The notes: generated from the sequence alone by a model not told the origin. DNA of 64,000 nucleotides from an uncultured Acidobacteriota bacterium (GCA_963796275.1 CAWCKY010000001.1:1056001-1120000); one strand, 5' to 3'; counted from the first letter of the stretch, positions 39,273 to 64,000 are shown. Numbers and translations: made by a program.

Positions 39273-41036
39273 CTACGCAGATTTGATAAGCTCAGGCCCA
39301 AGATATAGCCGTAACTGCTTGGTTTCATGTGGCTTCTTCATAGATCTTTGGATCGTCTGGTGATTAGGTTCGATCCGGTCACGCACCCAGAGTGGATCAA
39401 ATGGGGTTATCTGTCTCGATTGAAATGAGTGGTCGTGATAGACCGGTTGCGAGATGGCGGTTGGACGAGCAGATTTCTTGCCCCACTTGCACTGGTACTC
39501 AGTCAATATCTGAGATTGATACTCGGCACGCAAACGTCCACCCCAGCACGAGAGCTGGATGGGGGTGCGTGGCAGACCTGCTTCGACATAAATCCTCCAA
39601 CGCCCGATTCGGACGAAGCCGCGATCATCGGTCGTTCGTTGGCAGTATCGTTGCCCAAAAGCTCGCTGTAGATCGGCCAGGTCAATCTGCTTGCCTCTGG
39701 ATTCTCCGAGGACCTCCAACGGCGTGCGTCTTCCATCATTGCGGCGTTGGTGCGCCCAGTGTGGCAACCGGTTGTGATCGCGAATCAATTCGCGATGAAA
39801 TTCGACTGCAGACTCGATCGTCTTGCATCTTTCCCAGTGATACTCGCCAACCCGGGCCTGAATGCCGAACTGGCTCTCGATCAGGTTCTGCCAGGGATGG
39901 CCCTTTTCATACAGGTGATGGTGAATGCCGAGCTGCCTATTGGCACGCGTGAAATCGTGGCTGATAAACTGGCCTCCGTGATCGGAGATCACTTCTTCCC
40001 AAAGCCCCCAACGCAGTAGCGCCTGAAAGTAGACGTAAAGGATCACGCCGACTTCCTGTTCTGACGTGAGCGAACCGGCGAGGATGGTTCTGGAGAGACC
40101 TTCCAACAACAAGGTTGAATAGAGTTGGACACCTGCGGGCTTGGCGTCGAGATAGCGGAGGTCAACGTAAACGTGTTGGAATGGATGCTGACTTTTTGAC
40201 GGTCCCTCGCGTGGATCCCGTGGCTCGACGATAGCCACAAGTCGTTGTGGGGCCAGGTGGATGCGGCGATTGAGCGCCATGATCTTTTTGATCGTCGCCG
40301 GGCTAAGATAGATGTCGTAGTCCTGTTCTAAATATCCATTGATGCGGAACCAACCAGCATATCCGTATTTCTTTTGCAATTCGAGCACAGCGTGAATAGC
40401 GCCGAAAAACACTTTACGAGCCGGTCGATGCGGTGCGCGTGAAAGATCCAGCAGCCAGAGTTGTTTGTTGTCCGGTTGCGATTCAGCTTGGCGCGCGCGG
40501 CGCAGCCATTTTATGACGGTGTTGCGTGAGCAACGGAGTAATCGCGCAATCCGTTTCTCCGTCCAGCCCTGTTGTCGTAACTTGACCATTTCCTGCCGTA
40601 ACAACTGAGGGCTATCCGGCACGGGATACTGAATGAGACGTTGAAATTCAGGGTAGCGCCAGATGGGATAGCGTTCCAGCAATGCCTTTACCGTTTCGTG
40701 ATGGATGCGGTGATCAGTGGTCGCAAGCAAAACTCGCGCCAGTTCCCGGTCGGAGGCTGAGGGCACACAACACTTATAATAAAGCAGCGTCACGATGACC
40801 TGTTCGGGTGTTTGTGGTTCACGGGGATAGTCAGTTGCCGGGAACAGTCCCCGCATGCCTTCTTCCCGAAACTGGCGCAACCAACGACAGACAGTACTGT
40901 AAGAAAGCCCAAGCGCATCTTCCTGTTCTTCCGCCGATCGTTTCCCGGCCAGGCAGGGGGCGATGTAATGATATCGTTGCTGAGTTTCGCAAGTGATGGG
41001 CACTTCATCAAAATGCAAGGCAAGCTGTACAGACAT
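39273..41036 (-). CDS. DDE (rve/IS481-like) transposase with multiple N-terminal HTH motifs
   Basis: HTHs YSTVCRWLRQF and SRNTVIKWLRR; triad VD-L / SDHGGQF / LIES; ATG 41036 with GAAAGGA RBS. Confidence 0.85.
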   Translation of the reverse strand: MSVQLALHFDEVPITCETQQRYHYIAPCLAGKRSAEEQEDALGLSYSTVCRWLRQFREEGMRGLFPATDYPREPQTPEQVIVTLLYYKCCVPSASDRELARVLLATTDHRIHHETVKALLERYPIWRYPEFQRLIQYPVPDSPQLLRQEMVKLRQQGWTEKRIARLLRCSRNTVIKWLRRARQAESQPDNKQLWLLDLSRAPHRPARKVFFGAIHAVLELQKKYGYAGWFRINGYLEQDYDIYLSPATIKKIMALNRRIHLAPQRLVAIVEPRDPREGPSKSQHPFQHVYVDLRYLDAKPAGVQLYSTLLLEGLSRTILAGSLTSEQEVGVILYVYFQALLRWGLWEEVISDHGGQFISHDFTRANRQLGIHHHLYEKGHPWQNLIESQFGIQARVGEYHWERCKTIESAVEFHRELIRDHNRLPHWAHQRRNDGRRTPLEVLGESRGKQIDLADLQRAFGQRYCQRTTDDRGFVRIGRWRIYVEAGLPRTPIQLSCWGGRLRAEYQSQILTEYQCKWGKKSARPTAISQPVYHDHSFQSRQITPFDPLWVRDRIEPNHQTIQRSMKKPHETKQLRLYLGPELIKSA

Positions 41037-41202
41037 TGAGTATATCCTTTCAATACGATGGGTGGCACTCAATGCTATACGCCGCGAAAATCCTCATCCG
41101 ATTTTCAGCGCTTATTCTCAATTGTCGTGAAGGCTGAGATGGCCTCTAGAGATGGAGGCCACGTCGTGTTTTAACAGCGAAATTAGATATCAGAGATGGG
41201 TT

Positions 41203-43603: not shown

Positions 43604-43650
43604 CCAGAGCTGATCCGCCATTTGTGCCAACGATGTTGATAGCCAGCGCA

Positions 43651-45561
43651 CACGTTTCCCGAGGGGGTTTGCGCCAGGGGCCGGAAAGATTGAAAACGCG
43701 TGTATGGTTCGCCCAGGCTTGCGGGGAACCCTACGTCGTTCACCACACCGACGATCTCCTGCCAGCCGCGATCGTTGGGATTCGTGCCGCCGATGCGTTT
43801 GCCGATCGGGTTTTCGTTTGGCCAGAAGCGCCGCGCCATCGTTTCGTTGATGATGATAACCGCAGGGCGGTCGGCGATGTCGGCCGAGGTGAAAAAACGC
43901 CCCGAGAGCAGGCGGATACCGTAGGTCTCGAAGTAGCGCACGCTCACCGGTTCGCGGAAGACCTCCGGATATTGACCAGGCGCTGGCACGGGTTGACCTT
44001 CGACGACGAAGGAGCCACTGCTGCCGAAACCCCAGATCGGTTGCGAAGCGGAGAGCGCGGCCTGCTCGACGCCGGGCAGCGTGCGCAGACGCTCTTCGAG
44101 TTTTTGATAGAAAGCGGCGCGTTGAGCTGGGGTCGTGTATTCCGCGCCACGGGGAGAGGTTTGCGCCGTCAACAGACCGTCCACGCTCCAGCCGGGATCG
44201 AGAATGGCGAAACGTTGCAGCCCGCGCAGGAATAGACCGGCTCCCGTGAGCAGGATCAGCGCGAATGCCACCTCGCCGACGATCAGTGCGCTTCGCAGGC
44301 GTTGCTGCGAACGGCTGGCGCTCGATCCGCGCACGTTCTCTCTCAGAACCTGATTGACATCGGCGCGTGAGGCCAGCCATGCCGGAACCGTGCCGAAGAT
44401 CAGACCTGTCAGCACGGAGCAGAGCAAGGCGAAACCGAATACGCTGAGATCGAGCGTCACCTTCATACCAGGTAACTCGTTGAAGAGTCGGCGGCTGATG
44501 AATCCGACGCCCAGCATCGCGAGCACGAGGCTGAGCGCGCCGCCGATGAGCGCGATAGCGAGGCTTTCGATGAGGGATTGCCGCAGCAGACGGATGCGCC
44601 CGGCACCGAGCGCGGCGCGAACGGCGAACTCGCGGGCGCGCGCTGCGGTGCGGGCGAGCTGTAGATTGGCGAGGTTGGCGCAGGCGATGAGCAGCACGAA
44701 GCCGGCCAGGCCGAAGGTGAACCACATGACCCTCCGCCCGATCTGATCCGACATCGACAGCCGAAGCTGTTCGAGACGCAGACTCTCGTTCTGGTTTTGC
44801 GCAGTCTCTTTTGTGATATTTGCGGCGAGCGTCTTCATCGCCTGGTCGGCCTGCGCGATGGTCACGCCGGGCTTAAGGCGCGCGAAAGCCTGCAGGTAGT
44901 TGTTGCCGCGGAATCGTCGCCCCTCGGCGTTAAACGCCAGGGGACGCCACACATCGACATTGCCCCACAGGAGCGGATGATCGAAACCGCCGGGCATGAC
45001 GCCGATGACCTTGATGTTTTCGCTGTTCAGTCGCAAAGCTCGTCCGATGACATTAGGGTCGCCGCCGAAGCGGCTCATCCAGAACCGGTTGCTGAGGACG
45101 ACGACCTTGTCAGCGCCGGTCTCATGCTCCTCCTGTGTGAATACGCGCCCCAGGACCGGCTGAATGCGCAGCGCAGGGAAGAAGTCGGCCGAGACCACGA
45201 AGCCCTGCAAGCGTTCGGCGGGCTCTCCCGGCTCGGCGAAATTGGGACTTATCCCGCTGTAGGCGACCATTTGCTCGAATACGCCATTCTTCTCGCGCTG
45301 ATCGAAGAAGTTCCCCGGCGAATGCGGCCAACTCTGCGAATGTATGGATGTCCGAAAAATACGCACCAGCGCATCCGGGGCCGGATATGGAAGCGCGCGA
45401 AACAGATATGTGTTGAGTACACTGAACATCGCCGTATTGGCGCCGATGCCGAGCGCGAGGGTGAGCGCTGCCACGGCAGTGAATCCTTTATCCTTCAGCA
45501 GCATCCGCAGGCCGAACCGCAGGTCTTGCAACATTTCGTACTCCCATATTTCAGTTGTCAT
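43651..45561 (-). pseudogene. 5' part of an ADOP permease split by the transposon
   Basis: [32 protein letters not shown]; homology ends at the TSD. Confidence 0.9.
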
Positions 45562-49604: not shown

Positions 49605-50711
49605 ATGAGTGTTGCGACAGGAGACCTGTCCGTCAGAGCGCAAGAGGCGAGGGCGCAGCTCGATGCCCACGTGCGCGAGATCATCGAGTGGCACTTCAAT
49701 CCGGATACGGGTTGCCCGTTCTGGATCGACTTCGCGAAGAAGCTGGGTTGGGATCCGAGAAGCGAGGTCCGGTGTTTTGATGACCTGAAAAAATTGCCGC
49801 CCTTTGAGGACGAATGGTTGCGCGGCGGTCCGGTGCGCCGGTGGCTGCCGAAGGGGTTCGCCGGCAAACCGCTCTTCGTCTTCGAGACCGGCGGCACGAC
49901 CGGAGTGCCGAAGAGCCGCCTGGCCATCGATGACTTCCGAACTGATTACGAGATGTTCAGCCGCACGCTCCCCGATCAATATTTTCCCGCGGGAGCGAAC
50001 TGGCTGATGCTCGGGCCCTCGGGACCGCGCCGCCTGCGGCTTGCGGTGGAACATCTGTGCCAGCACAGGGGCGGGATATGCTTTTCGGTTGACCTCGATC
50101 CGCGTTGGGTCATCAAACTGATCAAGTGGGGAGAGTTCGAAGAGCTGGAGCGATACAAAGCACACGTGATCGATCAGGCGATCACGGTTCTCGGAGCCGG
50201 GCACGATATTCGCTGCCTGTTCACTACGCCCAAGCTGCTCGAGGCGCTCGCTGAAGAACTCGAAAACCGGGGCACGAGCATCAAGACATCGGGCATCACG
50301 GGCATCTTCGCGGGCGGCACGGAATTCACGCCTCAGTACACGCGGTTCGCCATTGAAGAATTGCTGGGCGGGGGCGTATACCTGACTCCGACATACGGTA
50401 ATACGCTCATGGGACTTGCCTGCTCTAAGCCGGTGACCCCGGAGGAGGGTTACAAGATCAGCTACTTTGCGCCGCAGCCCCGTGCCGTTATCGAAGTAGT
50501 CTCTTTCGATGATCCAACCCGAGTCGTGGAATACGGCGAGACGGGAAGGGTGCAGCTCACTACGCTGACACGGGAGACTTTCATCCCGAGGTTCCTGGAG
50601 AGAGATGAGGGCGAGCGAGAGCGGCCCTGCGACAAATATCCGTGGGACGGCGTGAGCGGCGTGCGCCCATTCCGCAAGCTCGCCGCCCAGACGACCGTGG
50701 GAGTTTATTGA
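49605..50711 (+). CDS. Short adenylate-forming ligase (PaaK/LuxE/EhpF-like)
   Basis: ETGGTTGVPK P-loop, AGGT, PTYGNT, ERD. Confidence 0.75.
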   Translation: MSVATGDLSVRAQEARAQLDAHVREIIEWHFNPDTGCPFWIDFAKKLGWDPRSEVRCFDDLKKLPPFEDEWLRGGPVRRWLPKGFAGKPLFVFETGGTTGVPKSRLAIDDFRTDYEMFSRTLPDQYFPAGANWLMLGPSGPRRLRLAVEHLCQHRGGICFSVDLDPRWVIKLIKWGEFEELERYKAHVIDQAITVLGAGHDIRCLFTTPKLLEALAEELENRGTSIKTSGITGIFAGGTEFTPQYTRFAIEELLGGGVYLTPTYGNTLMGLACSKPVTPEEGYKISYFAPQPRAVIEVVSFDDPTRVVEYGETGRVQLTTLTRETFIPRFLERDEGERERPCDKYPWDGVSGVRPFRKLAAQTTVGVY

Positions 50712-50898: not shown

Positions 50899-52339
50899 AT
50901 GAAAATACTCAATATTCCAATTCTGAGATGGGGTCAACCTTACAATAGTTTGGACAGAGAAGACGTGGTGCATTTCGTCACTGGCGAAACGCTGGCTCGG
51001 GTGAGCCAGGCGAACACCGGGCTACTGGGCCGTGACATACGTCACGCCGAACGCGCCCGAAATGCGCTGACCGCGATTCCGGTCTCGGAACTGATCGCAA
51101 TGATGAAGAAGGCGGCCGATTTATATCTTCATTCGACACTTCCGATGGGAGATGGGGAGCAAAGTCCGGACGACTTCGCCCGCCAGCAGTCCGCCAGCAC
51201 GGGATTACCAGAGCACATGTGCAAAGCCAACATGAGCAAGAACCACTTCGTGCTCTCGAATATGGAAAAGATACTGGATTCGCTGACTCGAGGATTGGAT
51301 TTGAATATCCTGACGCGCGGATACGGGGTCGAGTCTCGCGGAGTTACAGTCAGCTATCAGGTTCAGGCGCCCGTTCTAGGTTTGGTGCTGCCATCAAACT
51401 CTCCGGGCGTCCATACTCTGTGGCTGCCGGTGATCCCGATGCAGATCGGGCTGCTCCTGAAACCGGGTCCTCAAGAGCCGTGGACACCCTATCGAATGGC
51501 CGCCGCATTTACCGCGGCCGGCGTTCCCAAAGAGTCGATCGCCATCTATCCGGGCGGCGGCGAGATGGGTGCCGAGGTCCTGCGGCGATCCAATCGCACG
51601 ATGATCTTCGGCGGCACCGCGACGGTTGAACGGTATCGCGGCGACACACGCGTCCAGGTGCACGGACCAGGTTTTAGCAAAATTCTGCTGGGCGACGATG
51701 TGGTGGATGACTGGGAGAAGTATCTCGACGTGATGGTAGACAGCATATTTCTCAATAGCGGTCGCGGCTGCATCAATTGCTCGGGCGTCTGGGCCTCGCG
51801 TCACACGAAGGAGATCGCCGAGGCGCTGGCCGAACGAATCGGACCAATAGAGCCGAAGCAACCTGAGGATCCGCAGGCGAGCCTCGCCGCGTTCACCGTC
51901 CCTGGAGCCGCAAAAGCCATCTGGAAGAGCATCGAAACGGGATTGAACGCTGGGGGAACCGAACACGTCACCGCCAAATTCGGCCCGCGGCTGGTGGAGA
52001 AACAGCGCTGCGGATATCTGAGACCGGTCGTGGTCCATTGCGACTCACCAGAGACCGCGCTCTCCAACACCGAGTTCATGTTCCCCTTCGTCAGCGTGGT
52101 CCGGTGCCCGCAAAGCGAGATGCTGAATCGGGTCGGTCCAACATTAGTGGGCAGCGCAATTACAAACGACGAAAAATTCCAGCGGCAACTGATCGATGCG
52201 ACACACATCGACCGGTTGAACATCGGACCCGGTTCCCACGATCCAACTCGACTGGCTGCAGCCACACGAGGGGAATATAGTCGAGTTCCTATTTCGGCCG
52301 AGGGCATTTCAGGCAAAACAGGAAAAAGTAGCAGTTTAA
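50899..52339 (+). CDS. Aldehyde dehydrogenase-fold acyl reductase (LuxC/EhpG-like); frameshift near 52230
   Basis: LPSNSP, LKP, FGG, GRGCIN, EFMFP; corrected end GPVPTIQLDWLQPHEGNIVEFLF..TAA 52339. Confidence 0.78.
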
Positions 52340-53197
52340 AAGAGTGGATCGGTCCAACGCAGGCAGGCCCCGCAATCAAAAACGACGGAAAGTTCCGGCG
52401 GCTGGTCGATCCGACACACATAATCCGCCTGAACCCGGGTCAGTGGCTATCATTCGGAGCAGTAGCGGGGAGAATTGTGGAATTCTTGGTCCGTCAGGGC
52501 ATTTCATGCCAGGCGGGTATAAAACGACACACATTTAACTCAATACACAAAAAACAAGAACTCAGAAATAGATCAACATTCAGCAGCCTGGGTGCGTCTG
52601 ACTCTATTTCTATCATTGTTCTTTCCTCATTCTTTGATATTCGCGATCTAAATCACAATCCTTTTATTTTTAGCTATTTGCGATAGCACTTTAGCTTCGT
52701 GGTCAATAAGGCGCGTGTTCCTGCCTTCAAAAATTCAACGTGTGGCATGAGGCTACTCTCAATTTTGAATTTTTAAAGGAGTGTGTCGAAATTATCCTTT
52801 AACCATTCTTTTTTTAACTTCTGCCCACTTTTTCAGCGACCACGAGAGATACTGAAAGCATTAAATTAAATAAAGTTATCGCCAGCGATTACACTGACTC
52901 GTTTCGGTAAATATAGGTACTGCAGGGTTTGCCGATTCTTCCCAGGGCACGGCCTGTAACTTTGGGGATTAGCTGGCCAGGCGGATGGATGTGTCAGTGT
53001 GACTGGCATCCGGGTTGCTGGGTAAACGGGGAATTAATAGTTTTACTCACAAATAGCTTACCTAACCCAGCAAGCTTCGCTCTCTCTCTAAATAGAGGGC
53101 TAGAAGAGGTCTGTTCAATAGGTAGATATAGATTAGAAGGCAGAGCTGGTCAAGAGGCGCAGTTAGGAACCTGACGATTAACAACTAACCACGCGAG

Positions 53198-55007
53198 GTG
53201 AAAATAAAGATGTCCACGAATATCAGTCCGCCGCAGCCGACGAGTACGTCCCGGTCATTAGTCAACATAGCTTCAAAAGAAGAAACGCTCAGGCAGCAGC
53301 TGGCGGAAGAACGCGCTCGCCTGGCTCGTGAGATGGGTATAGAGGAGCAGCAAAAGCAGCAATTCAAGCGGCCGGTCGAGAATCCGTTCACTAAAAGCCA
53401 GCGCGAGCACACCACGCTGCTTTTCGGTGGGCTCACCTGGAAGCACGAACAGCTGGTTCATGGCGCCCTGGAAGGGCTGGGGTATAAGTGCGAGGCGATT
53501 CCGACGCCGAATGTGTCCGCATTCCAGTTGGGTAAGGAATATGGCAATAACGGCCAGTGCAATCCAACCTACTTCACGGTCGGGAATCTGGTGCAATTTC
53601 TGCAGGGGCTCGAAAATCAGGGTCAATCGCGCCAGGATATTATCGATAATTACGTCTTCTTCACGGCCGGGGCGTGTGGTCCCTGCCGGTTCGGAATGTA
53701 CGAAGCCGAGTACCGTCTCGCGCTGCGAAATTCCGGTTTCGACGGTTTCCGGGTCATGCTCTTTCAACAGTCGGGCGGATTGAACCAGTCGGAAGCCGAA
53801 GCCGGATTGGAGATGAACGTAGACTTTTTCCTCGCCATCCTCAATGCCCTCAATATGGGCGACCTTATCAATGACGCGTGCTATCAGATTCGGCCATACG
53901 AGGTAAACCCCGGCGAGACGGACGCTGTGATGAAGGAGTGCATGGATTACCTGCACGACGTCTTCAAGAGTCACCGGAAGTTCGCGCTGGATAACACGAC
54001 CGCCGGTTTCCTCAAGAATCTGCCGATCGGAGACACTGCCGAATATATCGGTAAGTTTCTCGATCAGCTTTTTGGCACCGAATACCAGGACGCATTCAAG
54101 ATAGTCGGTGAGAAGCTGGCGCAGATCAAAGTTGACCGGACGCGCGCCAAACCGATGGTCAAAGTGACCGGCGAGTTCTTGGCGCAGACGACCGAAGGCG
54201 ACGGTAATTTCAATATGTTCCGCTTTCTCGAGGGCGAGGGCGCACAGGTGCTGGTCGAACCGATCGGGACCTGGATTATGTACCTGATGCATCAGGCCAA
54301 GCAGCAGAAGAAGGATCGCAAGGGGGTCAACGAGAATGAGGCGATGCCGGCGGCCTGGCGCATCGACAAGCGTATCAAGAACGAACTGAGGACCGAAGAA
54401 ATCTTTGGCGCAGCTGACGCTGGCCGAGGCCATCTTCAAGCGTGAGTGGAACCGGCTGCGGGAGACTCTCAACTATCTGCCGCACGATCTGACCGACCAG
54501 TATGAGCTCCAGCGGATGGCGCATCCCTTCTACAACTCGCGCGCCGCGGGCGGTGAAGGGCACCTGGAGGTCGCCAAGAATATTTATTACTCGAACAAGG
54601 ACCTCGCGCACATGGTCCTTTCGCTCAAGCCATTCGGATGCATGCCTTCGACGCAATCGGACGGAGCGCAGTCTGCGGTCGTCAACCTCTACAAGGAAAT
54701 GATCTACCTGCCGATCGAAACATCGGGTGAGGGCGAAATAAATGCCCACAGCCGCGTGCAGATGGCATTGGGCGAAGCGAAGGTTAAATGCAAGCAGGAG
54801 TTCGCGCGCGTAATCGAAGAGACCGGTATGACGGTCGAGGCGGTGCGCGAGTATGTGGCCGGCCATCCGGAGCTGGAGAGCGGTCTCTATCACGTCCCGC
54901 ATTACAAGGGGATCGTCGGGACGGCGGCGAACTTCGTCAAGCATGTGTCGGAATTGATGGCCGCGGATAAACGCGCGCATGTGGCGACCAATGCTGCTGC
55001 TCATTAA
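53198..55007 (+). CDS. 2-hydroxyacyl-CoA dehydratase-like reductase subunit (PlsR-like); frameshift near 54395
   Basis: NNGQCNP, GACGPCRFGMY, VTGE, KPFGCMP, IETSGEG. Confidence 0.8.
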
Positions 55008-55127
55008 ATGCGAGTGAGCGCATTGAGAAAGGTGACCAGGGGAATATTGGCCGGGGGGTGGGGGCCGCAAGGTGGCCGGGTGGTGGAGCGAAGGTATTCC
55101 TGGTTACTGGCATATGAAAGTCGCGGA

Positions 55128-55246
55128 GCCCTGTAGGGGTGTGATTACTCCTAATTGCGCTTCTCAGGGCTGGTCGAAATTGGAACATCTTCCAGGGCTG
55201 CGCGGTGCTTTGCTCCTGGCTATTAGCTTGTGCCCCTTTGGGGCTT
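55128..55246. repeat. Degenerate REP-like element between the plsR-like and plsA-like genes
   Basis: CCTGGCTATTAGCTTGTGCCCCTTTGGGGC matches the reverse complement of 21244-21275. Confidence 0.6.
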
Positions 55247-55264
55247 CAATAGGTAGCATAGATA

Positions 55265-58200
55265 ATGAACCAAAATTACGAGAGGCTCTATATTGGACTG
55301 GACGTCGGTTCGACCACCGTCAAAGCGGTTGTGGTGGATCCGGTGAAGGACGAGATCCTGTGGCAGGACTACCAGCGTCACGAAACCAAACAGCCTGAGA
55401 AAGTCCTCGAATTTTTAGGGCGGATTGAAGCTGAATTTCCCATCTCAACAAGAGAACGTCCGCATATTCGTCACCGGTTCGGGCGGCGGCGGCCTGGCGC
55501 GTTTGATCGGCGCGAAATTCGTGCAGGAGGTCAATGCCGTCTCGCTTGCGGTCGAGAAGCTCTATCCCGAAGCCGGATCGGTCATCGAACTGGGCGGCCA
55601 GGACGCAAAGATCATCATCTTCAAGGAAGACCCTGAGACAGGGAAGAAGAAGAAGATCCCATCGATGAACGACAAGTGCGCGGGCGGCACGGGCGCGGTC
55701 ATCGACAAGATCAACGCCAAGCTGCGCATCCCGGCGGATAAGCTCTGCGAGATGGGTTATTACGGGTTGAAGCTGCACCCGTCGCGGGCAAGTGCGGCGT
55801 CTTTGCCGAGACGGACATCAACGGCCTGCAGAAGATGGGCGTGCCGCCCGACGAGCTGATGGCTTCGCTGTTCGAGGCGATCGTCGGGCAGAACCTTTCG
55901 GTGCTCACGCGCGGCAATACGCTGAGGCCTCACGTCTTGCTGCTCGGCGGTCCGAACACCTACATCCGCGGCATGGTCGATGCCTGGAAATACAACATAC
56001 CCAAGGTGTGGGAAGAGCGCGGCTATCCGCTGCCGGAAGGAGTCGATCCGAAGGAACTGATCAAAGTACCGCATAACGCGCAGTATTTCGCGGCGCTCGG
56101 CGCGGTCGAGTTCGGAAAATCGGAAGACGAGACTGTCGGGGTCTATCGCGGTCGCGCCGACCTCGAACACTACATCAACGTCGGCCGGCTCGAAGAGAAG
56201 AAGAAAGCCGGCGGCAAGGGGCTCTCGAGCAATCCGGATGAGCTGAGCTTCGTTCAAGGAAAAATACAAACACAAGAAATTCATCCCGGCCGTTTTTCAA
56301 TCGGGCCAGGTGATCGAGGGTTTTATCGGCCTCGATGGCGGCTCGACATCGACCAAGGCAGTGCTGCTCGACAAGGACCGGAATGTCCTGGTCAAGACCT
56401 ATCAGCTATCGAAAGGCAACCCGATCGAGGACACGAAAGAGGTCTTTGCGAAGCTGGAGAAGCAGGTGACCGATCAGGGGGCGGCGCTCAAGGTGATGGG
56501 CGTCGGCACTACCGGTTATGCCAAGGACATCCTGAAGGACGTTCTCGCGGCGGATGTCGCGCTGGTCGAAACCGTCGCGCACACCGAATCGGCTCTGCAG
56601 TTCTACAACGACGTGGACGTCATCGTCGATGTCGGCGGGCAGGACATCAAGCTGATCATTCTGAAGAACCGCCAGGTCAAGGACTTCAAGCTCAACACGC
56701 AATGCTCGGCGGGCAACGGCTACTTCCTGCAATCGACGGCCGAAGGTTTCGGCGATGAAGGTCGAAGAATACGCCGACATCGCCTTCGCCGCGCAAGTCG
56801 ATGCCGAATTTCGGCTACGGCTGCGCGGTCTTCATGCAGTCGGACATCGTCGATTTCCAGCGGCAGGGCTGGAAGCCGGAAGAGATCATGGCCGGGCTGG
56901 CAGCGGTGTTGCCGAAGAACATCTGGCTGTACGTCTCGCAGATTCCGAACATCGCGGGGCTCGGGACAAACTTCGTCCTGCAGGGCGGGACGCAGCACAA
57001 TCTGGCGGCCGTCAAATCGCAGGTCGATTTCATCGAGTCGCGCTTCAAAGGCAAGGAAATCCAGCCTCGACGTCATCGTCCACGAGCACTGCGGCGAGTC
57101 GGGCGCCATCGGCGCGGCGATCGAAGTCGATCAGGCTCTGGGGCAATGGGAAGCAGTCGAGCTTCATCGGTTTGGATAAAGTGGGGCAGGTCAGCTACGA
57201 CACGCACCGCAATGAGAACACGCGCTGTTACTTCTGCAAGAACAAATGTCTGAGAACTTTCATCGACGTGAAGGTAGTGGGTGCGCCTGTTGAAGAGCAG
57301 GAGCAGCCGCGCAAATCGAAGATTCCGATCCTGCCGGGCGTCAAGCGGTTGATCGTCGGCAACTCGTGCGATAAGGGATTGGTCGAAGACGTCAACGATA
57401 TGAAAGTTATCAAGAAGGGGATGGATGAAGTCAAAGCTGCCAACCCCAACTTCGTCGAGGTCGCGGCCAAGGCGGTCTGGCGCAGCTTCAACCCGCCGAA
57501 TGTCGCCGATCCTCCGCACAAGTTCGCTCTGACTCAGACGCAGAAGCAGCGCAACGAACTGGTCAAGCGGCGCGCGAAGATGCGCATCGGCATTCCGCGC
57601 GTGCTCAACCAGTATTCGGTCAATCCGCTCTTCTCGGCATATTTCGAGAGCTTGGGCGTACCGCCGCAGAACTTAATCTATTCGGATTACACGACCGAGC
57701 AGCTCTACAAGGAAGGCGCGAAGCGCGGAGCGATCGATCCGTGTTTCCCGTCGAAAGTGGGCATCCCGCACGTGCATAATCTGCTCCACGTGCATCACAA
57801 GAAGAAGCCGCTCGATATGATCTTCTTCCCGATGATCGATGCCCTGCCATCGGATTTATTCAATACGCTATCGAGCCGCGCCTGCCCGACGGTGACCACA
57901 ACGCCGGAGGCCGTCAAAGCCGCGTTCATCAAAGAGGGCAATCTCTTTGATGAGATGGGGATCAAGTATCTCAATCCGATTTTGAACATCGATAAGCCGC
58001 GTTTTCTCGAGAAGCAGATGTACGAGGCCTTCAAGGACATTCTTGGTCTGACGCAGAACGAGCATCACCGCGCCATCGAGGAAGGGCTCAAGGCTCTCGA
58101 CAACTTCTACAATGTGCAGCTACGCGGCGCGGCGCGCGAGGCGCTCAATCAGCTCGAGGCTGAGGACAAACTCGGCGTAGTGGTGCTGGCCCGGCCCTAT

Positions 58201-58807
58201 CACAACGATCCCGGCCTAAATCACGAGATCCTCGAAGAGTTCCAGAAGCTCGGATATCCGGTCTTCACCATGGATTCGTCTGCCGATGGATGACGACATC
58301 CTTTGGCGATTGTTCGGCGACGATGTGCGCGCCGGAATCATCAAGCATCCGATGGATATTCAGGATGCGTGGAAGAACTCATATTCGGAGAATACCAGCC
58401 GCAAGGTCTGGGCGGCCAAATACACGGCGCGCCATCCTAATCTGGTCGCGCTCGAGTTGTCTTCGTTCAAGTGCGGTCACGACGCGCCGATTTACACGGT
58501 AGTCGAAGAGACCGTTCAGAATTCGGGCACGCCGTATTTCTGCTTCAAGGATATCGATGAGAACAAGCCGACCGGCTCGATCAAGATTCGCGTCGAGACA
58601 ATCGGTTATTTCCTCAAGCGATATCGCGAGGACATGATCAAGAACAAAAATAAAGTGAAGACGCTGGAAGATCGCATGGCCGAGTACGAGCGGATGCTGC
58701 GACTGCAGCTGGAATTGGAAGAGAAGACCCAAGCATCAGAGTTTGGTAAATCGCTTCCGGTGCTGCCGGTGAATGTCTCGAACGAGCATCACATCGGAGC
58801 CGATTGA
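55265..58807 (+). CDS. Two BadF/BadG/BcrA/BcrD ATPase domains plus DUF2229-like reductase (PlsA/Ger-like); about 8 frameshifts
   Basis: GLDVGSTTVK..ELGGQD..KCAGGTG; GLDGGSTSTK..DVGGQD..QCSAGNG..GCAVF; CYFCKNKC; GIPR..PCFP..CP; RPYH; SFKCG. Confidence 0.82.
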
Positions 58808-58811
58808 GGCC

Positions 58812-58878
58812 TGTTTTCAGTTTTTTCAGCGGGCCTTGGTTTTGAAACTGAAAACTGAAAACTGAAAACTGAAACTTT
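58812..58878. repeat. GAAAACT heptamer repeats with an inverted partner (hairpin/terminator-like)
   Basis: GTTTTCAG repeats followed by GAAAACT tandem copies. Confidence 0.7.
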
Positions 58879-58884
58879 TTGGGT

Positions 58885-59160
58885 ATGCGTGAATCGGAAA
58901 AAGTCATGTTCCAGATCTATCGTGAAGCGAGCTACAACCGCCGCTACAAGGTGGTCTACTTCACTGAGCTGAATGAACATAACAAAGAGACGGAGATTAA
59001 TCGCGCGATGGCCGGCGACCATTATTTCGATGGCTTTCTCAAGGGGAATCACAAAGAGGAAGCCAAGGCCGTTATTGATCTGGTGCTCGCTCGCCTCAAC
59101 AACGGCGAGGCGGTTCGCCCCGATGAGATAGAGAGGGAGTTGGATGGTTACCTTGCCTGA
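58885..59160 (+). CDS. Small hypothetical protein within the cluster
   Basis: Co-oriented ~91-aa ORF (MRESEKVMFQIYRE..VYFTEL..FDGFL) with protein-like composition. Confidence 0.7.
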   Translation: MRESEKVMFQIYREASYNRRYKVVYFTELNEHNKETEINRAMAGDHYFDGFLKGNHKEEAKAVIDLVLARLNNGEAVRPDEIERELDGYLA

Positions 59161-59303
59161 ATCAGGACGGGACAGGTAGTTGTTGTAAGCATTCATCCTT
59201 GAAGCCATTAGAGTCATTCATGTCGTCGCAGACGACATACAGATAACGATGCCAGCTACTGGGAGCAAGCGCTAGCAGTAGTTGCAGAGGAGCTAAAACA
59301 GAT

Positions 59304-61397
59304 ATGCATAAACCTATAAAATATTTTGAAAAGGGCCTGACATACGCGGCGGGGGCAGCCTGGGCCGTGTTTGAACGACTCAATAGCATCAGGCCGAACC
59401 CTTCGTTCACTCCGAAATGGTCCGACAAGCCGCTGCTCAAATCCTGGCAGAAAACCAAGCCCACCCTCGGCTGGCCGCGCACTACTGACAGCCTTTGTCC
59501 GAAATGCATCCCCGAGATCCGTCAAAAGATCCTCGACGGTGACATACCGGTGGACATCCTGCGTAATGATAGAGTAGGCGAGATTAAGGCTCAGATAGTT
59601 GAGCGCGATGGCAAGATCCTCATGATCAAGGATTGTCCGGTCCATGGCCATTTCGAAGATGTGATGTCGATCGATCCGACGATGTTTCGCCATCTTGAAG
59701 AAGCCTTCCCCGGTCGCGATATTCGGGCGCACAACGACGAGAAGCTCCACGATCACGGATCGAGCACGATCCAACACGGCCGCGGCGCGGTGCTGACCAT
59801 CGACCTGACCAACCGCTGCAATATGATGTGCGATCCGTGCTTTATGGACGCGAATCAGGTCGGCTTCGTCCACGAGCTGAGCTGGGAAGAGATCAAGACG
59901 ATGCTCGATAACGCCATCTCGATCAAGCCGCGCCGCCAGCTATCGGTGCAGTTCTCGGGAGGCGAACCGACTCTCTCGCCCCACTTCCTCGACGCCATCA
60001 GATACTCGCGCGAAGTGGGTTACAACAGCGTCCAGTCGGCGACCAATGGGATCGAATTCGCCAAGAGCAAAGAGTTCTGCCGCAAGGCTGCCGAGGCGGG
60101 ACTGCGTTATGCCTATCTTCAGTTCGACGGCATCGGCAATGCCGCCAACAGCCACCGCAAGGTCGGCAACCTTTTTGATGTGAAGCTGCAGGCGATCCAG
60201 AACCTTCACGAGGCCGGCGTCGAGGTGGTCCCGGTCACGACGATCGTCAATGGGATCAATAATGAACAGGTTGGGCGCATCATCGAATTCGCGCTCGACA
60301 ACCCGAAGATCATCTCACTCTGCTCCTTCCAGCCTGTTTCATTCACCGGCCGCGACGAAGAAATCACGGATGAGCGGAGACACGCTCAGCGTTACACGCT
60401 CTCGCACCTGGCGCACGATGTTAAGAAACAAACGGGGCTGGGCGAACCCGTTCGCGACTGGTTCCCGATCTCGTTCATGGGCACATTTTCGGATTGGGCC
60501 GATCTCGTGCACGGGCCGGATCATGATTGGGGCCAGTTGAGCTGCGGTTGCCATCCGAATTGCGGCGTCGGCATGGCCGTCATGGTCGATAAGCAGACGA
60601 AAGAGGCCGCACCGCTCACTGCTTTCTTGAACATAGACCGGTTGGCTAAAGATGTGCAAAAGGTCAATGACGCGGGCCGCGGTAAATTTCTGTCGGTTCT
60701 AGGTATGGCGCTGGCCGTCGCGAAAAATTACGATCCCTTCAAGGCGACCACGCACTTTCATCTGTGGAGCCTGCTCATGAAATTCGACAAGGGGTTCGGC
60801 GCGAGCGGGCGTAATTACGGCAATGTCAATGGAAATCGAACGATGGAGGACATCGAGAAGCGGCGCAGCGACCGCTGGAACATTCTCTTCCTCGCCGGGA
60901 TGTGGTTCCAGGATCTCTTTAACTACGATTTCCGACGCACTGAAATGTGTATCATCCCTTACGCGACGCAAGAGGGCGAGATCAGTTTCTGCGCGTATAA
61001 CACCGGCGTCGGCTGGCGGCAAATCGTCGAGAAGATGCATATGACCGCGACGCTGACCAAATGGTACGAAGAACACGGGCGCCACGAGATTTTCGCGGGC
61101 GGGAAGAGCGTCAATCTCAATGCCGTCGATCATAAGATGTTGCTTCGCGAAGAACTGATAACTCAGGATGTTCAGCACGATCTCGACCGACTTGGTATCG
61201 CCAAGAATTCCCGCGAAGAGCAGATCAAAGCGCGCGCTGAGAAGCTGCGCCAGCAAAAAGAGAACGAGCGCATGGCGCAACTCTATCGCCAGCACATCTT
61301 GAAAGAGCCGGAAGAAGAGAAGCCGAAGCTGGTGCAGATCGAAATGGGCGGTAAGCCCAAGGTCAGCGAGGAAGTCGCTTCAGTTTCAGGAGATTGA
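59304..61397 (+). CDS. Radical SAM enzyme, Tes/GDGT-MAS (MJ0619)-like family
   Basis: Rubredoxin-like SLCPKC..KDCPVHG; CNMMCDPC; FSGGEPT; YLQFDG; FQPVS; CHPNCG; C..SFCAYN. Confidence 0.8.
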   Translation: MHKPIKYFEKGLTYAAGAAWAVFERLNSIRPNPSFTPKWSDKPLLKSWQKTKPTLGWPRTTDSLCPKCIPEIRQKILDGDIPVDILRNDRVGEIKAQIVERDGKILMIKDCPVHGHFEDVMSIDPTMFRHLEEAFPGRDIRAHNDEKLHDHGSSTIQHGRGAVLTIDLTNRCNMMCDPCFMDANQVGFVHELSWEEIKTMLDNAISIKPRRQLSVQFSGGEPTLSPHFLDAIRYSREVGYNSVQSATNGIEFAKSKEFCRKAAEAGLRYAYLQFDGIGNAANSHRKVGNLFDVKLQAIQNLHEAGVEVVPVTTIVNGINNEQVGRIIEFALDNPKIISLCSFQPVSFTGRDEEITDERRHAQRYTLSHLAHDVKKQTGLGEPVRDWFPISFMGTFSDWADLVHGPDHDWGQLSCGCHPNCGVGMAVMVDKQTKEAAPLTAFLNIDRLAKDVQKVNDAGRGKFLSVLGMALAVAKNYDPFKATTHFHLWSLLMKFDKGFGASGRNYGNVNGNRTMEDIEKRRSDRWNILFLAGMWFQDLFNYDFRRTEMCIIPYATQEGEISFCAYNTGVGWRQIVEKMHMTATLTKWYEEHGRHEIFAGGKSVNLNAVDHKMLLREELITQDVQHDLDRLGIAKNSREEQIKARAEKLRQQKENERMAQLYRQHILKEPEEEKPKLVQIEMGGKPKVSEEVASVSGD

Positions 61398-61568
61398 GTC
61401 ATCTCCAGGTGAGTTACAAAAAGTTCTTGACGAGGTTTGTTCTGATTTATGCCCGTGTTTTTGGGGCTTCGAGTTGAACTAACCAGCTTTTAAACTCACT
61501 TCCAGAGTATTTTTTGGGATTTATTACACAACCAACTTGCTATCGAGAACAGGAAAGGAGCACTAGGC

Positions 61569-62858
61569 ATGCTTGAAGAAGCGGGCGTAGACAATCAGGC
61601 AACACAGGCGCCATCGACACCGACTTATAGAGTCGATGTTCCGCTCTATACGCTCTTGCAAAAGACATCTGCCGGCAGATCGACATTGCCGCAGAGGGAT
61701 GAACCGGCGACTCTTCCGGATCCGGTCTTCCCCATGTTAACCAGGACCACGGACCTCAAGCGATCGGGGTTCATTTATCACGCCAATAATGGCGTGCGCG
61801 CCTTCCGGCGCTGGATGGTTCCATACATCCAATCGCGCATCTATGCCGATGAGTTCCGGCCATTGCTTTCGTACCTCTTCACTGAATGGAAGTGCAATCT
61901 CGATTGCCATTACTGCTGGTCGTACAATAACAACATCAAAGGAATGTCGGAGGATGTTGCCCGCCGTTCCATCGACTGGCTGCATTCGGTCGGCTGTCGC
62001 GTAATCGCGATCATGGGCGGCGAGCCGCTTCTGCGGCCGAAGTTCATTCACAAGATCGTCTATTACGGAACGAAGCGCGGATTCTTTGTTTATCTGCCGA
62101 CAAACGGTAGATTGATGAAGCCCGAGGTGACCGATTGGCTGGGCGATGCGGGCGTCGCCGCGATCAACTTCGCCGTCGATTGCGTGGACGAGAAGCCGGG
62201 TCTGCCCAAAATACTCAACAAAATCAGGTCTAATTTCGACTATCTGGTCAAGGTTCAACGGAAATACGGCTACATGATGGTCTTCAACATCAACATCTGC
62301 CGTAACAACATGGATGACGTCAAAGAGCTGACGGAGATCGCGCACGACAACGGTATCTCGACCGATTATCACATCAACGAGACGCCGATGCTCGAGCAGG
62401 ATCACTTCAAGCACTATAATGACAATCCCACTTATCTGCGGCCGGAAGATTTTCCGAAGGTCGATGAGCTGCTCGATTACCTGATCGACAAGAACAAGCA
62501 GGGCTACATCATGGTCAACTCCAAGGCGCACCTGGAGCGTATGAAACTCTTCATGCGCGGCCACGTCGAGCCGTGGAATTGCCGGGCGGGCCATAATTCG
62601 CTGATCATTCGCACCGACGGAACGCTCGCGCCGTGCTTCCCGATGTACTCCGCGACCGTGGACTGGGGTACCATCGAGAATCATAAGTTCGATAATAAAC
62701 AGCTCGACGTGATGAAGAAGGACTGCGTCAAGCATTGCCTCTCGACGTGCCAGTATGTGCTCGGTCATTACTATAACAACCAGACCGTTCTGCGCTGGAT
62801 CGTCAAACAGGCATTGCATGGCATGAGCGGTAATACCACGGCTATAGCGCAAACGTAA
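61569..62858 (+). CDS. Radical SAM protein with C-terminal SPASM/twitch-like cysteines
   Basis: CNLDCHYC, GGEP, TNG, CRAG..PC..CVKHCLSTC. Confidence 0.88.
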   Translation: MLEEAGVDNQATQAPSTPTYRVDVPLYTLLQKTSAGRSTLPQRDEPATLPDPVFPMLTRTTDLKRSGFIYHANNGVRAFRRWMVPYIQSRIYADEFRPLLSYLFTEWKCNLDCHYCWSYNNNIKGMSEDVARRSIDWLHSVGCRVIAIMGGEPLLRPKFIHKIVYYGTKRGFFVYLPTNGRLMKPEVTDWLGDAGVAAINFAVDCVDEKPGLPKILNKIRSNFDYLVKVQRKYGYMMVFNINICRNNMDDVKELTEIAHDNGISTDYHINETPMLEQDHFKHYNDNPTYLRPEDFPKVDELLDYLIDKNKQGYIMVNSKAHLERMKLFMRGHVEPWNCRAGHNSLIIRTDGTLAPCFPMYSATVDWGTIENHKFDNKQLDVMKKDCVKHCLSTCQYVLGHYYNNQTVLRWIVKQALHGMSGNTTAIAQT

Positions 62859-63054
62859 TAAATCGAGAATACGTCGATTTCAACTAGATGAATGTCAAGA
62901 CAAGCCACAGAGCCGCAGAGACGCTGAGAAGGAAAATAGGGGATAGTCGGTCGGGCTATCTCGATGGTTTTATCTTCACCGTGTCTCTGTGCTACTGTGG
63001 CTTATTCTTGGTATCCACCCAAATTAATTAATAGTTCGGTCAAAGGAGGGATGG

Positions 63055-64000
63055 ATGAAAGTTGCTGATGTATTTCGTGGTTGGGGACGTATTCTGAGCG
63101 GATATCGACCGATGCTGTCGATCGAAATTACGCGCGAGTGTCCTCTACGCTGTCCGGGATGTTACGCATACCAGCCGGAGCATTTGGGGGATGTCGGACC
63201 GCTCCGATCGCTGGCGGACTACAAGGGGCAGGAGTTGATCGATAGAGTACTTGAGCTGGTGCGCCGGCATCGTCCGCTCCATCTTTCGATTGTGGGCGGC
63301 GAGCCTTTAGTGCGGTTCAGGGAATTGAACGAATTGCTGCCTCGACTGGATGAGATGGGTATCGAGATCCAGCTCGTCACAAGCGCGGTCAGGCAAATAC
63401 CGCCGGAATGGACGAAGATCAAGGGGTTGCACCTGGTCGTATCGATTGACGGCCTGCAACCGGACCACGACCGCAGGCGCAAGCCGGCTACTTACGACAA
63501 GATCGTGCAGAATATAGTGGGACACTCTATCATCGTTCATTGCACGATTACCCATCAGATGATGGTAAAAAATAATGCAGGAGAGAAGTACTTCGAAGAG
63601 TTCCTCTCTTTCTGGTCGGCGCGCCCTGAAGTTCGGAAGGTCTGGTTCAGTATCTTTACTCCTCAAATAGGAGAAGAAGCCGAAGAGATATTATCGCCGG
63701 AGGAGAGATCGTCGGTATTGGCTGAGATAGCGCGACTGCGGCCGCTCTTCCCCAAACTGTATATGCCGGATGTAATCCTGCAGGGGTATCGCAAGCCTCC
63801 GCAATCTCCGGATGAATGTATCTTCTCGCGCACAACATTGAGCATCACGGCCGACCTGAACAGCCGGATATCTCCGTGCCAGTTCGGCGGAAACCCCGAT
63901 TGTTCACAATGCGGCTGCATAGCATCTGCCGGGTTGGCGGCCATAGGCGAGTATCAATTGTTCGGAATTCTACCGGTGAGGTCGATCTACTTTGCGTCGG
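63055..64000 (+). CDS. Radical SAM protein, truncated by the window edge (absent from the ORF track)
   Basis: AAGGAGG RBS; MKVADVFRGWGRIL..CPLRCPGC..GGEPL..PCQFGGNPDCSQCGC. Confidence 0.88.
   Translation, partial: MKVADVFRGWGRILSGYRPMLSIEITRECPLRCPGCYAYQPEHLGDVGPLRSLADYKGQELIDRVLELVRRHRPLHLSIVGGEPLVRFRELNELLPRLDEMGIEIQLVTSAVRQIPPEWTKIKGLHLVVSIDGLQPDHDRRRKPATYDKIVQNIVGHSIIVHCTITHQMMVKNNAGEKYFEEFLSFWSARPEVRKVWFSIFTPQIGEEAEEILSPEERSSVLAEIARLRPLFPKLYMPDVILQGYRKPPQSPDECIFSRTTLSITADLNSRISPCQFGGNPDCSQCGCIASAGLAAIGEYQLFGILPVRSIYFAS

Follow-up and report, generated by a model that had tools for sequence, protein, structure and literature searches.

A run of co-oriented genes at positions 53,198-64,000 of the window (the whole stretch of DNA analyzed, 64,000 nucleotides from an uncultured Acidobacteriota bacterium, a soil acidobacterium) encodes a putative split ester reductase followed by a homolog of the archaeal lipid synthase Tes and by further radical SAM enzymes. 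We propose, at roughly even chances, that these are membrane-lipid modification genes of a probable member of Blastocatellia (Acidobacteriota), in which the reductase genes (geneA, geneB and geneC, together geneABC) and a Tes module, two modules that usually lie apart, would be joined in one cluster. In this scheme, the first reductase module would come from geneB, along with two ATPase domains that activate electrons, and the second from geneA, which is encoded upstream instead of downstream, with geneC as a small conserved partner. The resulting enzyme would reduce glycerol ester bonds to alkenyl or alkyl ethers, and the extra radical SAM enzymes may tailor the chains.

All genes of the run that had been described by a previous sequence-only reading were recovered on the + strand, each in its expected place. 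The gaps between them are about 80-500 nt, and a promoter and terminator scan of the run performed no better than on shuffled sequences, so that the run is no more than a candidate for a single operon. The arrangement exceeds chance, because the order geneA-geneB-geneC-Tes-rSAM recurs in 4-5 related genomes (G000, G001, G007, G008 and G014) and in metagenome contigs, including locus L120, where the genes are intact.

The central gene of the reductase, geneB (55265-58807, + strand, about 1178 aa read through eight breaks), is PlsA/Ger-like, with two BcrAD_BadFG domains, a Cys-rich linker and DUF2229. Its pieces match PF01869 (BcrAD_BadFG) twice in Pfam, its intact relative P0123 has two PF01869 stretches (E = 9.3e-71), and DUF2229 (PF09989) follows the ATPase domains (E = 5.5e-47, window positions 56755-58293), as the double ATPase and DUF2229 protein of the sequence-only reading had anticipated. 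This is the sole DUF2229 locus in the genome; the control genomes of T. maritima and Lactococcus lactis are also positive for PF09989. A frameshift-aware alignment with P0123 gave 1107 identical residues out of 1181 and zero in-frame stops, and the read-through retains the paired cysteines of the bridging cluster. The ORF at 58286-58807, listed previously as a separate small gene, falls within this read-through and was rejected as a gene of its own, since it is the C-terminus of geneB.

Upstream lies geneA (53210-55007, + strand, starting with ATG), which encodes the PlsR-equivalent second reductase subunit ("Red2"). Its reductase-subunit character, as previously suggested, stands; its length is 598 aa and not 415 aa, as alignment to the intact 598-aa protein P0002 (94-96% identity, spread over two frames) carries the reading through one break. 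Sequence searches of Pfam, NCBIfam and PDB gave no match for geneA, and PF06050 (HGD-D), the domain reported for the second module of Ger, was unmatched even at an E-value of 10. Residues 53-520 align to residues 1005-1411 of P0392 (22% identity, E = 7e-12), a 1413-aa single-chain acidobacterial BBD protein (locus L105) that is itself uncharacterized; this homology to the C-terminal module of P0392 is the sole basis for calling geneA "dehydratase-like". Cysteines taken to bind the cluster are kept, C117 and C159 being invariant and C156 and C477 nearly so among 42 relatives of geneA. One relative, P0280, is fused to pyridine-nucleotide-disulphide oxidoreductase and ferredoxin domains.

The two genes appear to belong together. 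geneA was paired with geneB at each of the 17 genome loci that could be tested and in all 53 metagenome loci having room upstream, and geneA-type and geneB-type sequences are fused in one chain in P0278 and P0295, fusions being known in both orders. Residues 3-1135 of geneB match P0392, the only canonical-length BBD protein compared, at 29% identity (E = 7e-121), and geneB and geneA jointly span its 1413 residues. Because they match single-chain PlsA/Ger-type proteins end to end, the geneA-geneB pair is, by homology, a split PlsA/PlsR-like enzyme, and the assignment of the domain set to PlsA/PlsR/Ger is thereby upheld, with two BcrAD_BadFG domains and DUF2229 in one protein and the second reductase module encoded separately. 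Two canonical-length acidobacterial proteins were scanned for PF06050, giving a sub-threshold match in L107 (18.2 bits) and none in P0392.

PlsA/PlsR and Ger are described as turning esters into ethers (PMC13159169, PMC12838417). The plasmalogen synthase PlsA/PlsR of Clostridium perfringens (CPE1194/1195), whose product is a vinyl ether, is, as here, a two-gene enzyme of the benzoyl-CoA reductase/2-hydroxyacyl-CoA dehydratase kind, and its layout, given in the published description as Act1, Act2, Red1, Red2 (PMC12838417), likewise has two ATPase domains and the first reductase module in one protein and the second module in another. However, the gene order is reversed in the present locus, with the PlsR-equivalent first, its 598-aa product is unmatched by any Pfam model including HGD-D, and a third gene, conserved and coding for 91 aa, accompanies the pair. 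The core of two BcrAD_BadFG domains and DUF2229 ("BBD"), which is reported as conserved among all alkyl-ether producers (PMC13159169), is common to geneB and Ger, the reductase of glycerol esters (Thermotoga maritima Tmari_0479; Desulfatibacillum alkenivorans). In the single-chain Ger, short HGD-D and DUF2229 matches fall in the tail; the counterpart of that tail in the present locus is a protein of its own, unmodelled. Since Ger and PlsA are described as indistinguishable by sequence (PMC13274423, PMC11868695), an alkyl or an alkenyl product cannot be predicted. BBD-only "ger" matches in Acidobacteriota MAGs have been interpreted as being without the second reduction domain (10.64898/2026.06.23.733905); the missing domain of such genes may be the product of the upstream gene.

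The third gene, geneC (58885-59160, + strand), encodes a conserved 91-aa protein outside known families, with no match in Pfam and a mean column identity of 68% in an alignment of 25 copies. It is a partner of the geneA-geneB pair. In the genomes it follows geneB at 10 of 20 loci; in the metagenomes it is no more than 1.5 kb from geneB at all 23 close loci and at 24 of the 52 more distant ones. It adjoined Tes in none of 80 Tes loci.

The Tes homolog (59304-61397, + strand) is an intact gene for a 697-aa radical SAM protein with an N-terminal zinc-ribbon or rubredoxin-like motif. It matches PF04055 (E = 4e-20) and PF23545 (E = 9.5e-13), carries CNMMCDPC, fitting the CX3CX2C motif of the radical SAM core, and is 74-79% identical to homologs across Acidobacteriota. 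The rubredoxin-motif radical SAM enzyme of the sequence-only reading is indeed a Tes/MJ0619 homolog, with 326.8 bits against the NCBIfam Tes model NF045702, which is under the 450-bit equivalog cut-off, and an E-value of 1.1e-63 against PDB 7tol_A (MJ0619 GDGT-MAS; residues 93-591 against 35-515). It shares with this archaeal enzyme the radical SAM core, the N-terminal motif and full-length similarity, but is longer by about 90 residues at the N-terminus and about 105 at the C-terminus, and its substrate would be branched acyl chains rather than phytanyl ethers. According to PMC11868695, activity is unconfirmed for the Tes homologs of bacteria.

The linkage of the reductase genes to Tes is patchy. 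Among close metagenome loci having room, 12 of 19 have a Tes-family gene after geneB-geneC, and in a quick tree the Tes genes adjoining geneB-geneC fall in at least four separate Tes lineages; they are 33%-89% identical to the Tes homolog of the window, while geneB stays at 77-89%. The one beside geneABC in locus L126 is of archaeal type and scores over the NCBIfam Tes cut-off (552 bits). Elsewhere in the phylum, 80 Tes loci of other Acidobacteriota species had neither geneA nor geneB within 10 kb; 19 phylum genomes carry a geneB-type gene, and in each of them Tes is either on a different contig or at a distance of about 290 kb or more; and no Tes was downstream of geneB in 47 more distant metagenome loci. 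Lack of conservation of the linkage in relatives, one of the outcomes that the sequence-only reading had named as refuting it, has thus half come about.

There is perhaps one chance in a few that the adjacency is a rearrangement accident in one lineage, geneA-geneB-geneC (with rSAM2 or rSAM4) being a self-contained reductase functionally untied to the Tes homolog. The reductase could then act on a CoA-ester or on some other metabolite open to reduction, as do other benzoyl-CoA reductase/2-hydroxyacyl-CoA dehydratase relatives. The absence of linkage from all three of those samples is what such an accident would leave, and both modules are otherwise flanked by unrelated housekeeping genes; geneA lacks a family model, geneB is just 29% identical to the canonical-length type, and the P0280 fusion points to variable wiring. 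However, recurrence of Tes in 12 of 19 close loci, from at least four lineages of such divergence beside a far more uniform geneB, is a pattern hard to obtain by chance, and homologs of rSAM4 neighbor each module separately: of the 47 more distant metagenome loci, 10 have one after geneC, and of the 80 genome loci of Tes, 4 have one beside that gene. A Tes-like gene is also present in 18 of the 19 geneB carriers in the phylum compared with 139 of 301 genomes overall, a contrast inflated by kinship. Carriers of geneA, geneB and Tes include a cultured bacterium, Tunturiibacter psychrotolerans X4BP1. The recurrent pairing of geneABC with Tes, by its frequency in close loci and its spread over Tes lineages, supports a putative shared lipid pathway. 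Even so, geneABC cannot serve the group as its general route to ethers, since Tes-like genes greatly outnumber those of geneB type (the same 139 against about 19 of 301 phylum genomes; 41/41 against 9/41 in the class sample).

The reading frames of geneA and geneB are interrupted by nine single-base breaks, one in geneA (near 54393-54398) and eight in geneB (at about 55445, 55782, 56246, 56754, 56797, 57071, 57126 and 58279). The nine frameshifts are most likely assembly errors, and the two genes are therefore probably intact in the organism itself. In the same genome, 5 of 12 RND pump genes are split likewise into 2-4 adjacent pieces, so the breaks are genome-wide. Contigs of relatives from four metagenomes are free of all nine, and dN/dS is 0.04-0.09 without excess on the own branch. 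It is unlikely that geneA and geneB are true pseudogenes, the frameshifts inactivating the reductase and leaving only the Tes homolog and radical SAM genes functional. All nine breaks lie within 5.6 kb, outside homopolymer runs, against none in the next 6 kb (Tes homolog and rSAM2-4), a sequencing run of this very strain was looked for and none was found, and a second genome, G008, is also broken (one break in geneA, two in geneB). The split RND pump genes argue against decay, as do the stop-free geneB read-through with its high identity to the intact relative, the dN on the own branch, which is not above that between intact relatives (0.10 and 0.09), and a metagenome contig that is identical over 151 bases save for the break at 58277. 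G008 is in 30 contigs and 78% complete, which, we infer, would fit an indel-rich long-read assembly.

Where two more radical SAM enzymes had been counted after the Tes-like gene, three are present. rSAM2 (61569-62858, + strand, 429 aa) matches PF04055 and has a SPASM/twitch-like C-terminus; rSAM3 (63055-64074, + strand, 339 aa in full) is cut by the window end at 64000. Beyond it lie geneD (about 64040-64324), a conserved ORF of about 94 aa with homologs in L086 and L089, and rSAM4 (64445-65263, 272 aa), the ORFs and Pfam matches past the window end being taken from the same genome and locus L003. In NCBIfam, rSAM2 gave weak matches only (best PapB, 66 bits against a cut-off of 340), and its homologs (52-57% identity) are beside geneA/geneB without Tes in three genomes (G049, G071 and G099). 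The GMGT synthase Gms is described as having a core strongly similar to AhbD (E = 7e-79) and, at its N-terminus, some 100 aa more that bind lipid (PMC11214058). With the AhbD model as a proxy for Gms, in a comparison covering rSAM2 and rSAM3, rSAM2 scored 58.9 bits (E = 5.6e-16), and for rSAM3 the AhbD model was not among the best matches listed. Mss of Thermotoga and Thermoanaerobacter, a radical SAM enzyme for which the coupling of two fatty acid tails has been proposed or shown, is paired with Ger in published schemes leading to ether-bound membrane-spanning lipids (PMC13159169, PMC13274423). It is reported not to be a Tes homolog by BLAST (PMC13159169). That the downstream part is instead a peptide-modifying (RiPP-type) radical SAM/SPASM cluster unrelated to lipids, with geneC and geneD as precursors, is very improbable: the run does hold two conserved small ORFs and the best NCBIfam matches of the downstream enzymes are peptide maturases (PapB, CcpM and ACGX-type), but their scores of 37-66 bits are all far under the family cut-offs of 340-500, geneC accompanies geneB rather than the radical SAM genes, neither small ORF has a Cys- or Gly-rich core (geneC being free of cysteine and geneD having one), and the neighbor is a Tes homolog similar over its full length to a lipid synthase of known structure.

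Contig C4 of the same genome carries a gene set (210607-220349) that we take to be elb-like, and this set counts against reading geneABC as lipid-ether genes. Enzymes of the families found in the cluster are oxygen-sensitive. Most cultured relatives are described as aerobes (PMC13159169), which, alongside that sensitivity, counts against the lipid proposal. The elb cluster, known from Myxococcus xanthus with homologs in subdivision-4 Acidobacteria, consists of unrelated enzymes of the AMP-ligase and fatty-acyl reductase type and is the favored route to ether bonds in this class (PMC13159169, PMC10087280); in the account of PMC13159169, Ger homologs are absent from cultured subdivision-4 species, whose ethers are attributed to elb. 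The designation "brGDGT-type operon" exceeds the data, as subdivision-4 cultures, in the account of PMC13274423, make iso-diabolic acid glycerol ethers, with brGDGTs not detected there.

Homologs of Tes and PlsAR have been proposed for Solibacter usitatus (PMC10087280), and the idea of combining Tes with PlsAR/Ger is already published, from co-occurrence. In the literature searched, no description was found of the physical cluster, of the unmodelled second subunit or of geneC. With a co-oriented split reductase, its partner, a Tes homolog and radical SAM enzymes, the locus offers a concrete, testable candidate set for bacterial ether and membrane-spanning lipids.

On the plus strand, a run of genes occupies the right-hand end of the window and continues beyond it. 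It begins with geneA (53210-55007, 598 aa), the second reductase module of a split PlsA/PlsR-type pair, and geneB (55265-58807, about 1178 aa), which encodes two ATPase domains and DUF2229. They are followed by geneC (58885-59160), which encodes a 91-aa protein of no known family, by a homolog (59304-61397, 697 aa, radical SAM) of Tes, the tetraether synthase of archaea, and by the radical SAM genes rSAM2 (61569-62858, 429 aa) and rSAM3 (63055-64074, 339 aa). The run ends with geneD (about 64040-64324, or L003:17040-17324 in the extended locus; about 94 aa) and a further radical SAM gene, rSAM4 (64445-65263, 272 aa), directly past which the strand switches. The conserved small ORF geneD overlaps the end of rSAM3 and is 53-61% identical in two relatives (L086, L089), while rSAM4 falls into generic radical SAM clusters in the ESM Atlas. 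The sequence-only reading had described this run of reductase-like and radical SAM genes correctly, apart from details corrected here. Intergenic gaps range from about 80 to 500 nt, a scan of the cluster for consensus promoters and terminators performed no better than on shuffled sequence, and an Rfam scan of the cluster gave no match; we therefore describe the genes as co-oriented and do not call them one operon.

The window spans C1:1056001-1120000 of the source genome (G000), which has 9.46 Mb in 7 contigs with 54% G+C. Among named relatives, those closest to its proteins come from Blastocatellia and Pyrinomonadaceae MAGs, and from these names, not from a marker tree, we infer that it belongs to Acidobacteriota subdivision 4. 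Upstream of geneA lies a spacer of about 520 nt (52686-53210) with low G+C (0.46-0.48 vs about 0.54 elsewhere), in which neither an Rfam match nor a promoter call above chance was obtained. The AMP-binding-like gene (49605-50711) and the aldehyde dehydrogenase gene (50899-52686) before it were rejected as cluster members, as they are not kept beside geneA in relatives. Farther upstream, the minus strand carries an IS481-like transposase (39273-41072), a group II intron reverse transcriptase/maturase with an HNH domain (41279-43219) and a MacB-like permease (43573-45561) with a single FtsX domain, against two in its paralog at 28567-31338; a mobile element may have inserted into this permease gene.

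The geneB product carries two BcrAD_BadFG ATPase domains and DUF2229, and among solved proteins it comes closest to activators of 2-hydroxyacyl-CoA dehydratases and subunits of benzoyl-CoA reductase. For geneA no match was found in Pfam or NCBIfam, and sequence and profile searches of the PDB returned nothing meaningful. A library of 1.84 billion proteins nevertheless contains 1961 relatives of it (E up to 0.001), and in the ESM Atlas it falls only in clusters named 'activator of 2-hydroxyglutaryl-CoA dehydratase family', without a common Pfam domain. As a reference we used P0392, from a genome of the same phylum (G267), a 1413-aa single chain made up of two ATPase domains, DUF2229 and a long tail. 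Its first 1015 residues align to geneB (29% identity, E 7e-121) and its last 400 to geneA (22% identity, E 7e-12), with the cysteine-containing motifs in register. Fusions of the two parts exist in both orders: the geneA part precedes the ATPase-DUF2229 part in P0278 (1623 aa) and follows it in P0295 (1579 aa). Furthermore, 42 relatives of geneA keep its cysteines C117, C156, C159 and C477 with few or no exceptions. Based on the P0392 alignments, the two fusion orders and the conserved cysteines, we consider geneB and geneA together a split form of Act1-Act2-Red1-Red2, the layout of PlsA/PlsR and Ger according to the domain descriptions in PMC12838417 and PMC13159169; the likeness is one of layout. 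The PlsR-equivalent, geneA, comes first in the split arrangement found here. The two genes adjoin in 17 of 17 testable genome loci and in all 53 metagenome loci with room upstream. The proposed assignment to the PlsA/PlsR/Ger family holds at the level of architecture. A separate geneA relative, P0280 (1271 aa), is fused to pyridine-nucleotide-disulphide oxidoreductase and 4Fe-4S ferredoxin domains, which hints that some family members may have a built-in electron donor.

The assembled geneA is interrupted by one single-base break and geneB by eight, namely seven surplus bases and one missing base; homopolymer runs do not coincide with these breaks. Four results point to assembly errors. A scan of G000 for RND pumps (PF00873) identified 12 genes, 5 of which are split into 2-4 abutting pieces (for example C3:391501-394583, C3:917935-920992, C6:94440-97518, C6:1346165-1349304 and C2:575088-578169), about 8 breaks in about 37 kb; the assembly thus seems to hold many single-base indel errors, and pseudogene calls in it need raw reads for this reason. 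In contigs of relatives from four soil or plant metagenome runs, the extra base is absent or the missing base present at all nine sites, and one 151-base metagenome contig differs from the window only by the break at 58277. Read through, geneB contains no stop and is identical to its intact relative P0123 at 1107 of 1181 residues. Finally, its dN (0.08-0.10) and dN/dS (0.04-0.09) against intact relatives are the same as among the intact relatives themselves. Real pseudogenisation of the two genes is improbable in our judgement; in its favour are the higher density of breaks here (9 in 5.6 kb) than in the RND pump genes, the next 6 kb after geneB with zero breaks, and the failure to find a run from the same strain among those searched. 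None of the sequencing runs searched with the stretch shares half or more of its words, and no RNA run holding the stretch is among those listed.

The Tes homolog has a radical SAM core and an N-terminal zinc-ribbon motif. It matches the GDGT-MAS protein MJ0619 over nearly its whole length (E 1.1e-63) and scores 326.8 bits against the NCBI Tes model, below the cut-off of 450. It represents the main acidobacterial type, with 74-79% identity in Terriglobia, Bryobacterales, Vicinamibacterales and Blastocatellia. All 41 genomes sampled from the class, counting G000 and the unpublished G004, contain a Tes-like gene, as do 139 of 301 genomes of the phylum sample (the unpublished G087, G063 and G184 included). 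A conserved lipid operon around Tes was rejected after inspection of loci from 80 other species, as the commonest neighbour, which has no Pfam match, occurs at only 21 of the 80, and the neighbour families with a Pfam match are housekeeping ones.

At none of these 80 loci does geneA or geneB lie within 10 kb of Tes. A geneB-type gene is present in 9 of the 41 class genomes and adjoins Tes in only G000, G001, G007, G008 and G014, which represent four genera of one family; in G002 the contig begins just before Tes. Across the phylum, the full-length geneB type was detected in about 19 of 301 genomes. Of these 19, 18 carry a Tes-like gene as well, in every case either at a distance of about 290 kb or more or on a separate contig. 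Named genomes with such unlinked copies include Tunturiibacter psychrotolerans X4BP1, which has geneA as well as geneB, and a Ca. Sulfopaludibacter MAG. A search with one query did not find the type in Acidipila rosea or Granulicella aggregans, which do carry Tes, or in isolate DAS_389.

Eighty metagenome loci were fetched with P0123, of which 27 are close (geneB at least 77% identical) and 53 more distant. At least 800 nt of room downstream is available at 19 of the close loci, and a Tes-family gene stands straight after geneB-geneC in 12 of them; one locus (L120) carries the entire cluster in open frames. Among the more distant loci, Tes follows geneB in none of the 47 with room, and an rSAM4 homolog stands straight after geneC in ten. 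Homologs of rSAM4 are beside Tes at 4 of the 80 genome loci. The small geneC is strongly conserved in an alignment of its copies and matched no family. It follows geneB at 10 of 20 genome loci and, in metagenomes, at 23 of 23 close and 24 of 52 more distant loci, and at none of the 80 Tes loci is it beside Tes alone. A 348-aa protein was rejected as a geneC fusion, since it looks like a miscalled read-through of the geneB end and geneC. In three genomes with Tes elsewhere (L096 in G049, L100 in G071 and L104 in G099), rSAM2 homologs (52-57% identity) adjoin or separate geneA and geneB, so rSAM2 may be part of the reductase module instead of going with Tes.

The Tes genes linked to geneA, geneB and geneC are 33 to 89% identical to the Tes homolog of the window. 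Two bacterial contigs carry archaeal-type Tes (L126:12410-14287 and L129:14229-16181) directly downstream of geneA-geneB-geneC, and the latter genes are 52-78% identical to P0002 (an intact geneA relative), P0123 or the geneC of the window. We call the L126 copy archaeal-type because its 552 bits exceed the NCBI cut-off of 450. A quick maximum-likelihood tree of Tes with SH-aLRT support only was built from 48 rows. The 80 genome loci contributed 21 of these, namely each fifth locus and, in addition, the named and the rSAM4-adjacent loci; L203, which comes from the unpublished G063, was omitted, and row L035 is a bad ORF pick with a very long branch. On this tree, 5 changes of the label 'linked' are required, and well-supported branches force at least 4 of them. 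The strongest evidence obtained here that the two modules may share a pathway is this recurrent pairing with different Tes lineages, its weak points being the quick tree and kinship among contigs. The interpretation given by the sequence-only reading is partly supported: the functional link to Tes that it suggested gains real, though indirect, support; its further proposal, a brGDGT-type operon, we keep as the hypothesis that the cluster could produce brGDGTs.

Another gene set of G000 (C4:210607-220349, minus strand, L209) encodes KAS III, an enoyl-CoA hydratase, an AMP-binding enzyme and two NAD_binding_4 proteins of the fatty-acyl-reductase type, one of which also has HAD and Sterile domains. 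We take this set to resemble elb, the ether-lipid cluster of myxobacteria, so the cluster studied here is not the sole candidate ether route of the genome.

Branched GDGTs are among the most widely used temperature and pH proxies for soils and lakes, and their biosynthetic genes and producers are unsettled. The idea of Tes acting with an ester reductase is itself not new. Tes homologs in Acidobacteria have been put forward as brGDGT enzymes (in the sections of PMC8941075 concerned), and Tes and PlsAR homologs together have been proposed for S. usitatus (in those of PMC10087280). According to PMC13023045, Chen et al. (2025) detected brGDGTs in the presence of both Tes and Ger homologs, and nothing beyond tetraesters with Tes on its own. 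Such proposals, of a Tes homolog with a PlsAR or Ger homolog, rest on gene co-occurrence in genomes. The portions of PMC13159169 on cultures give no Ger or Mss homologs for subdivision-4 strains, and Tes homologs for 3 of 14 producers of iso-diabolic acid under strict thresholds; homologs of gms clustered with tes in Acidobacteria are described in a passage of PMC11214058. A full-text literature search of main texts found no description of a physical Tes-PlsA/Ger cluster, of a separate upstream second subunit or of a 91-aa partner. Supplements may show such maps, and the listings of acidobacterial Ger, PlsAR and Tes homologs (for example, in PMC10087280, Fig. S10 and Table S5; in PMC13159169, table S21; in PMC11214058, SI Fig. 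S15) may already include some of these genes or clusters. The relevant part of a 2026 preprint (10.64898/2026.06.23.733905) reports 'ger' hits in Acidobacteriota MAGs with two ATPase domains and DUF2229 only, read as being without the second reduction domain. Our results suggest that such 'incomplete' Ger homologs have the second reductase module on a separate gene, invisible to Pfam.

It is possible, though we would not wager on it, that geneA, geneB and geneC are the missing ester-to-ether reductase of soil Acidobacteria, a three-subunit PlsAR/Ger variant that acts on Tes-family substrates or products and was recruited to Tes several times, including archaeal-type Tes in bacteria. The second subunit and the small partner would then have escaped domain-based screens, and carriers of both modules and of rSAM4-type partners would be the organisms that convert iso-diabolic tetraesters to membrane-spanning lipids with ether bonds, as far as brGDGTs. 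The physical cluster, which recurs beside several Tes lineages with an unmodelled second subunit and small partner, offers a compact gene set for expression or knockout. Should this function prove correct, geneA and geneC would have to be added as markers when ether-lipid producers are surveyed by their genes.
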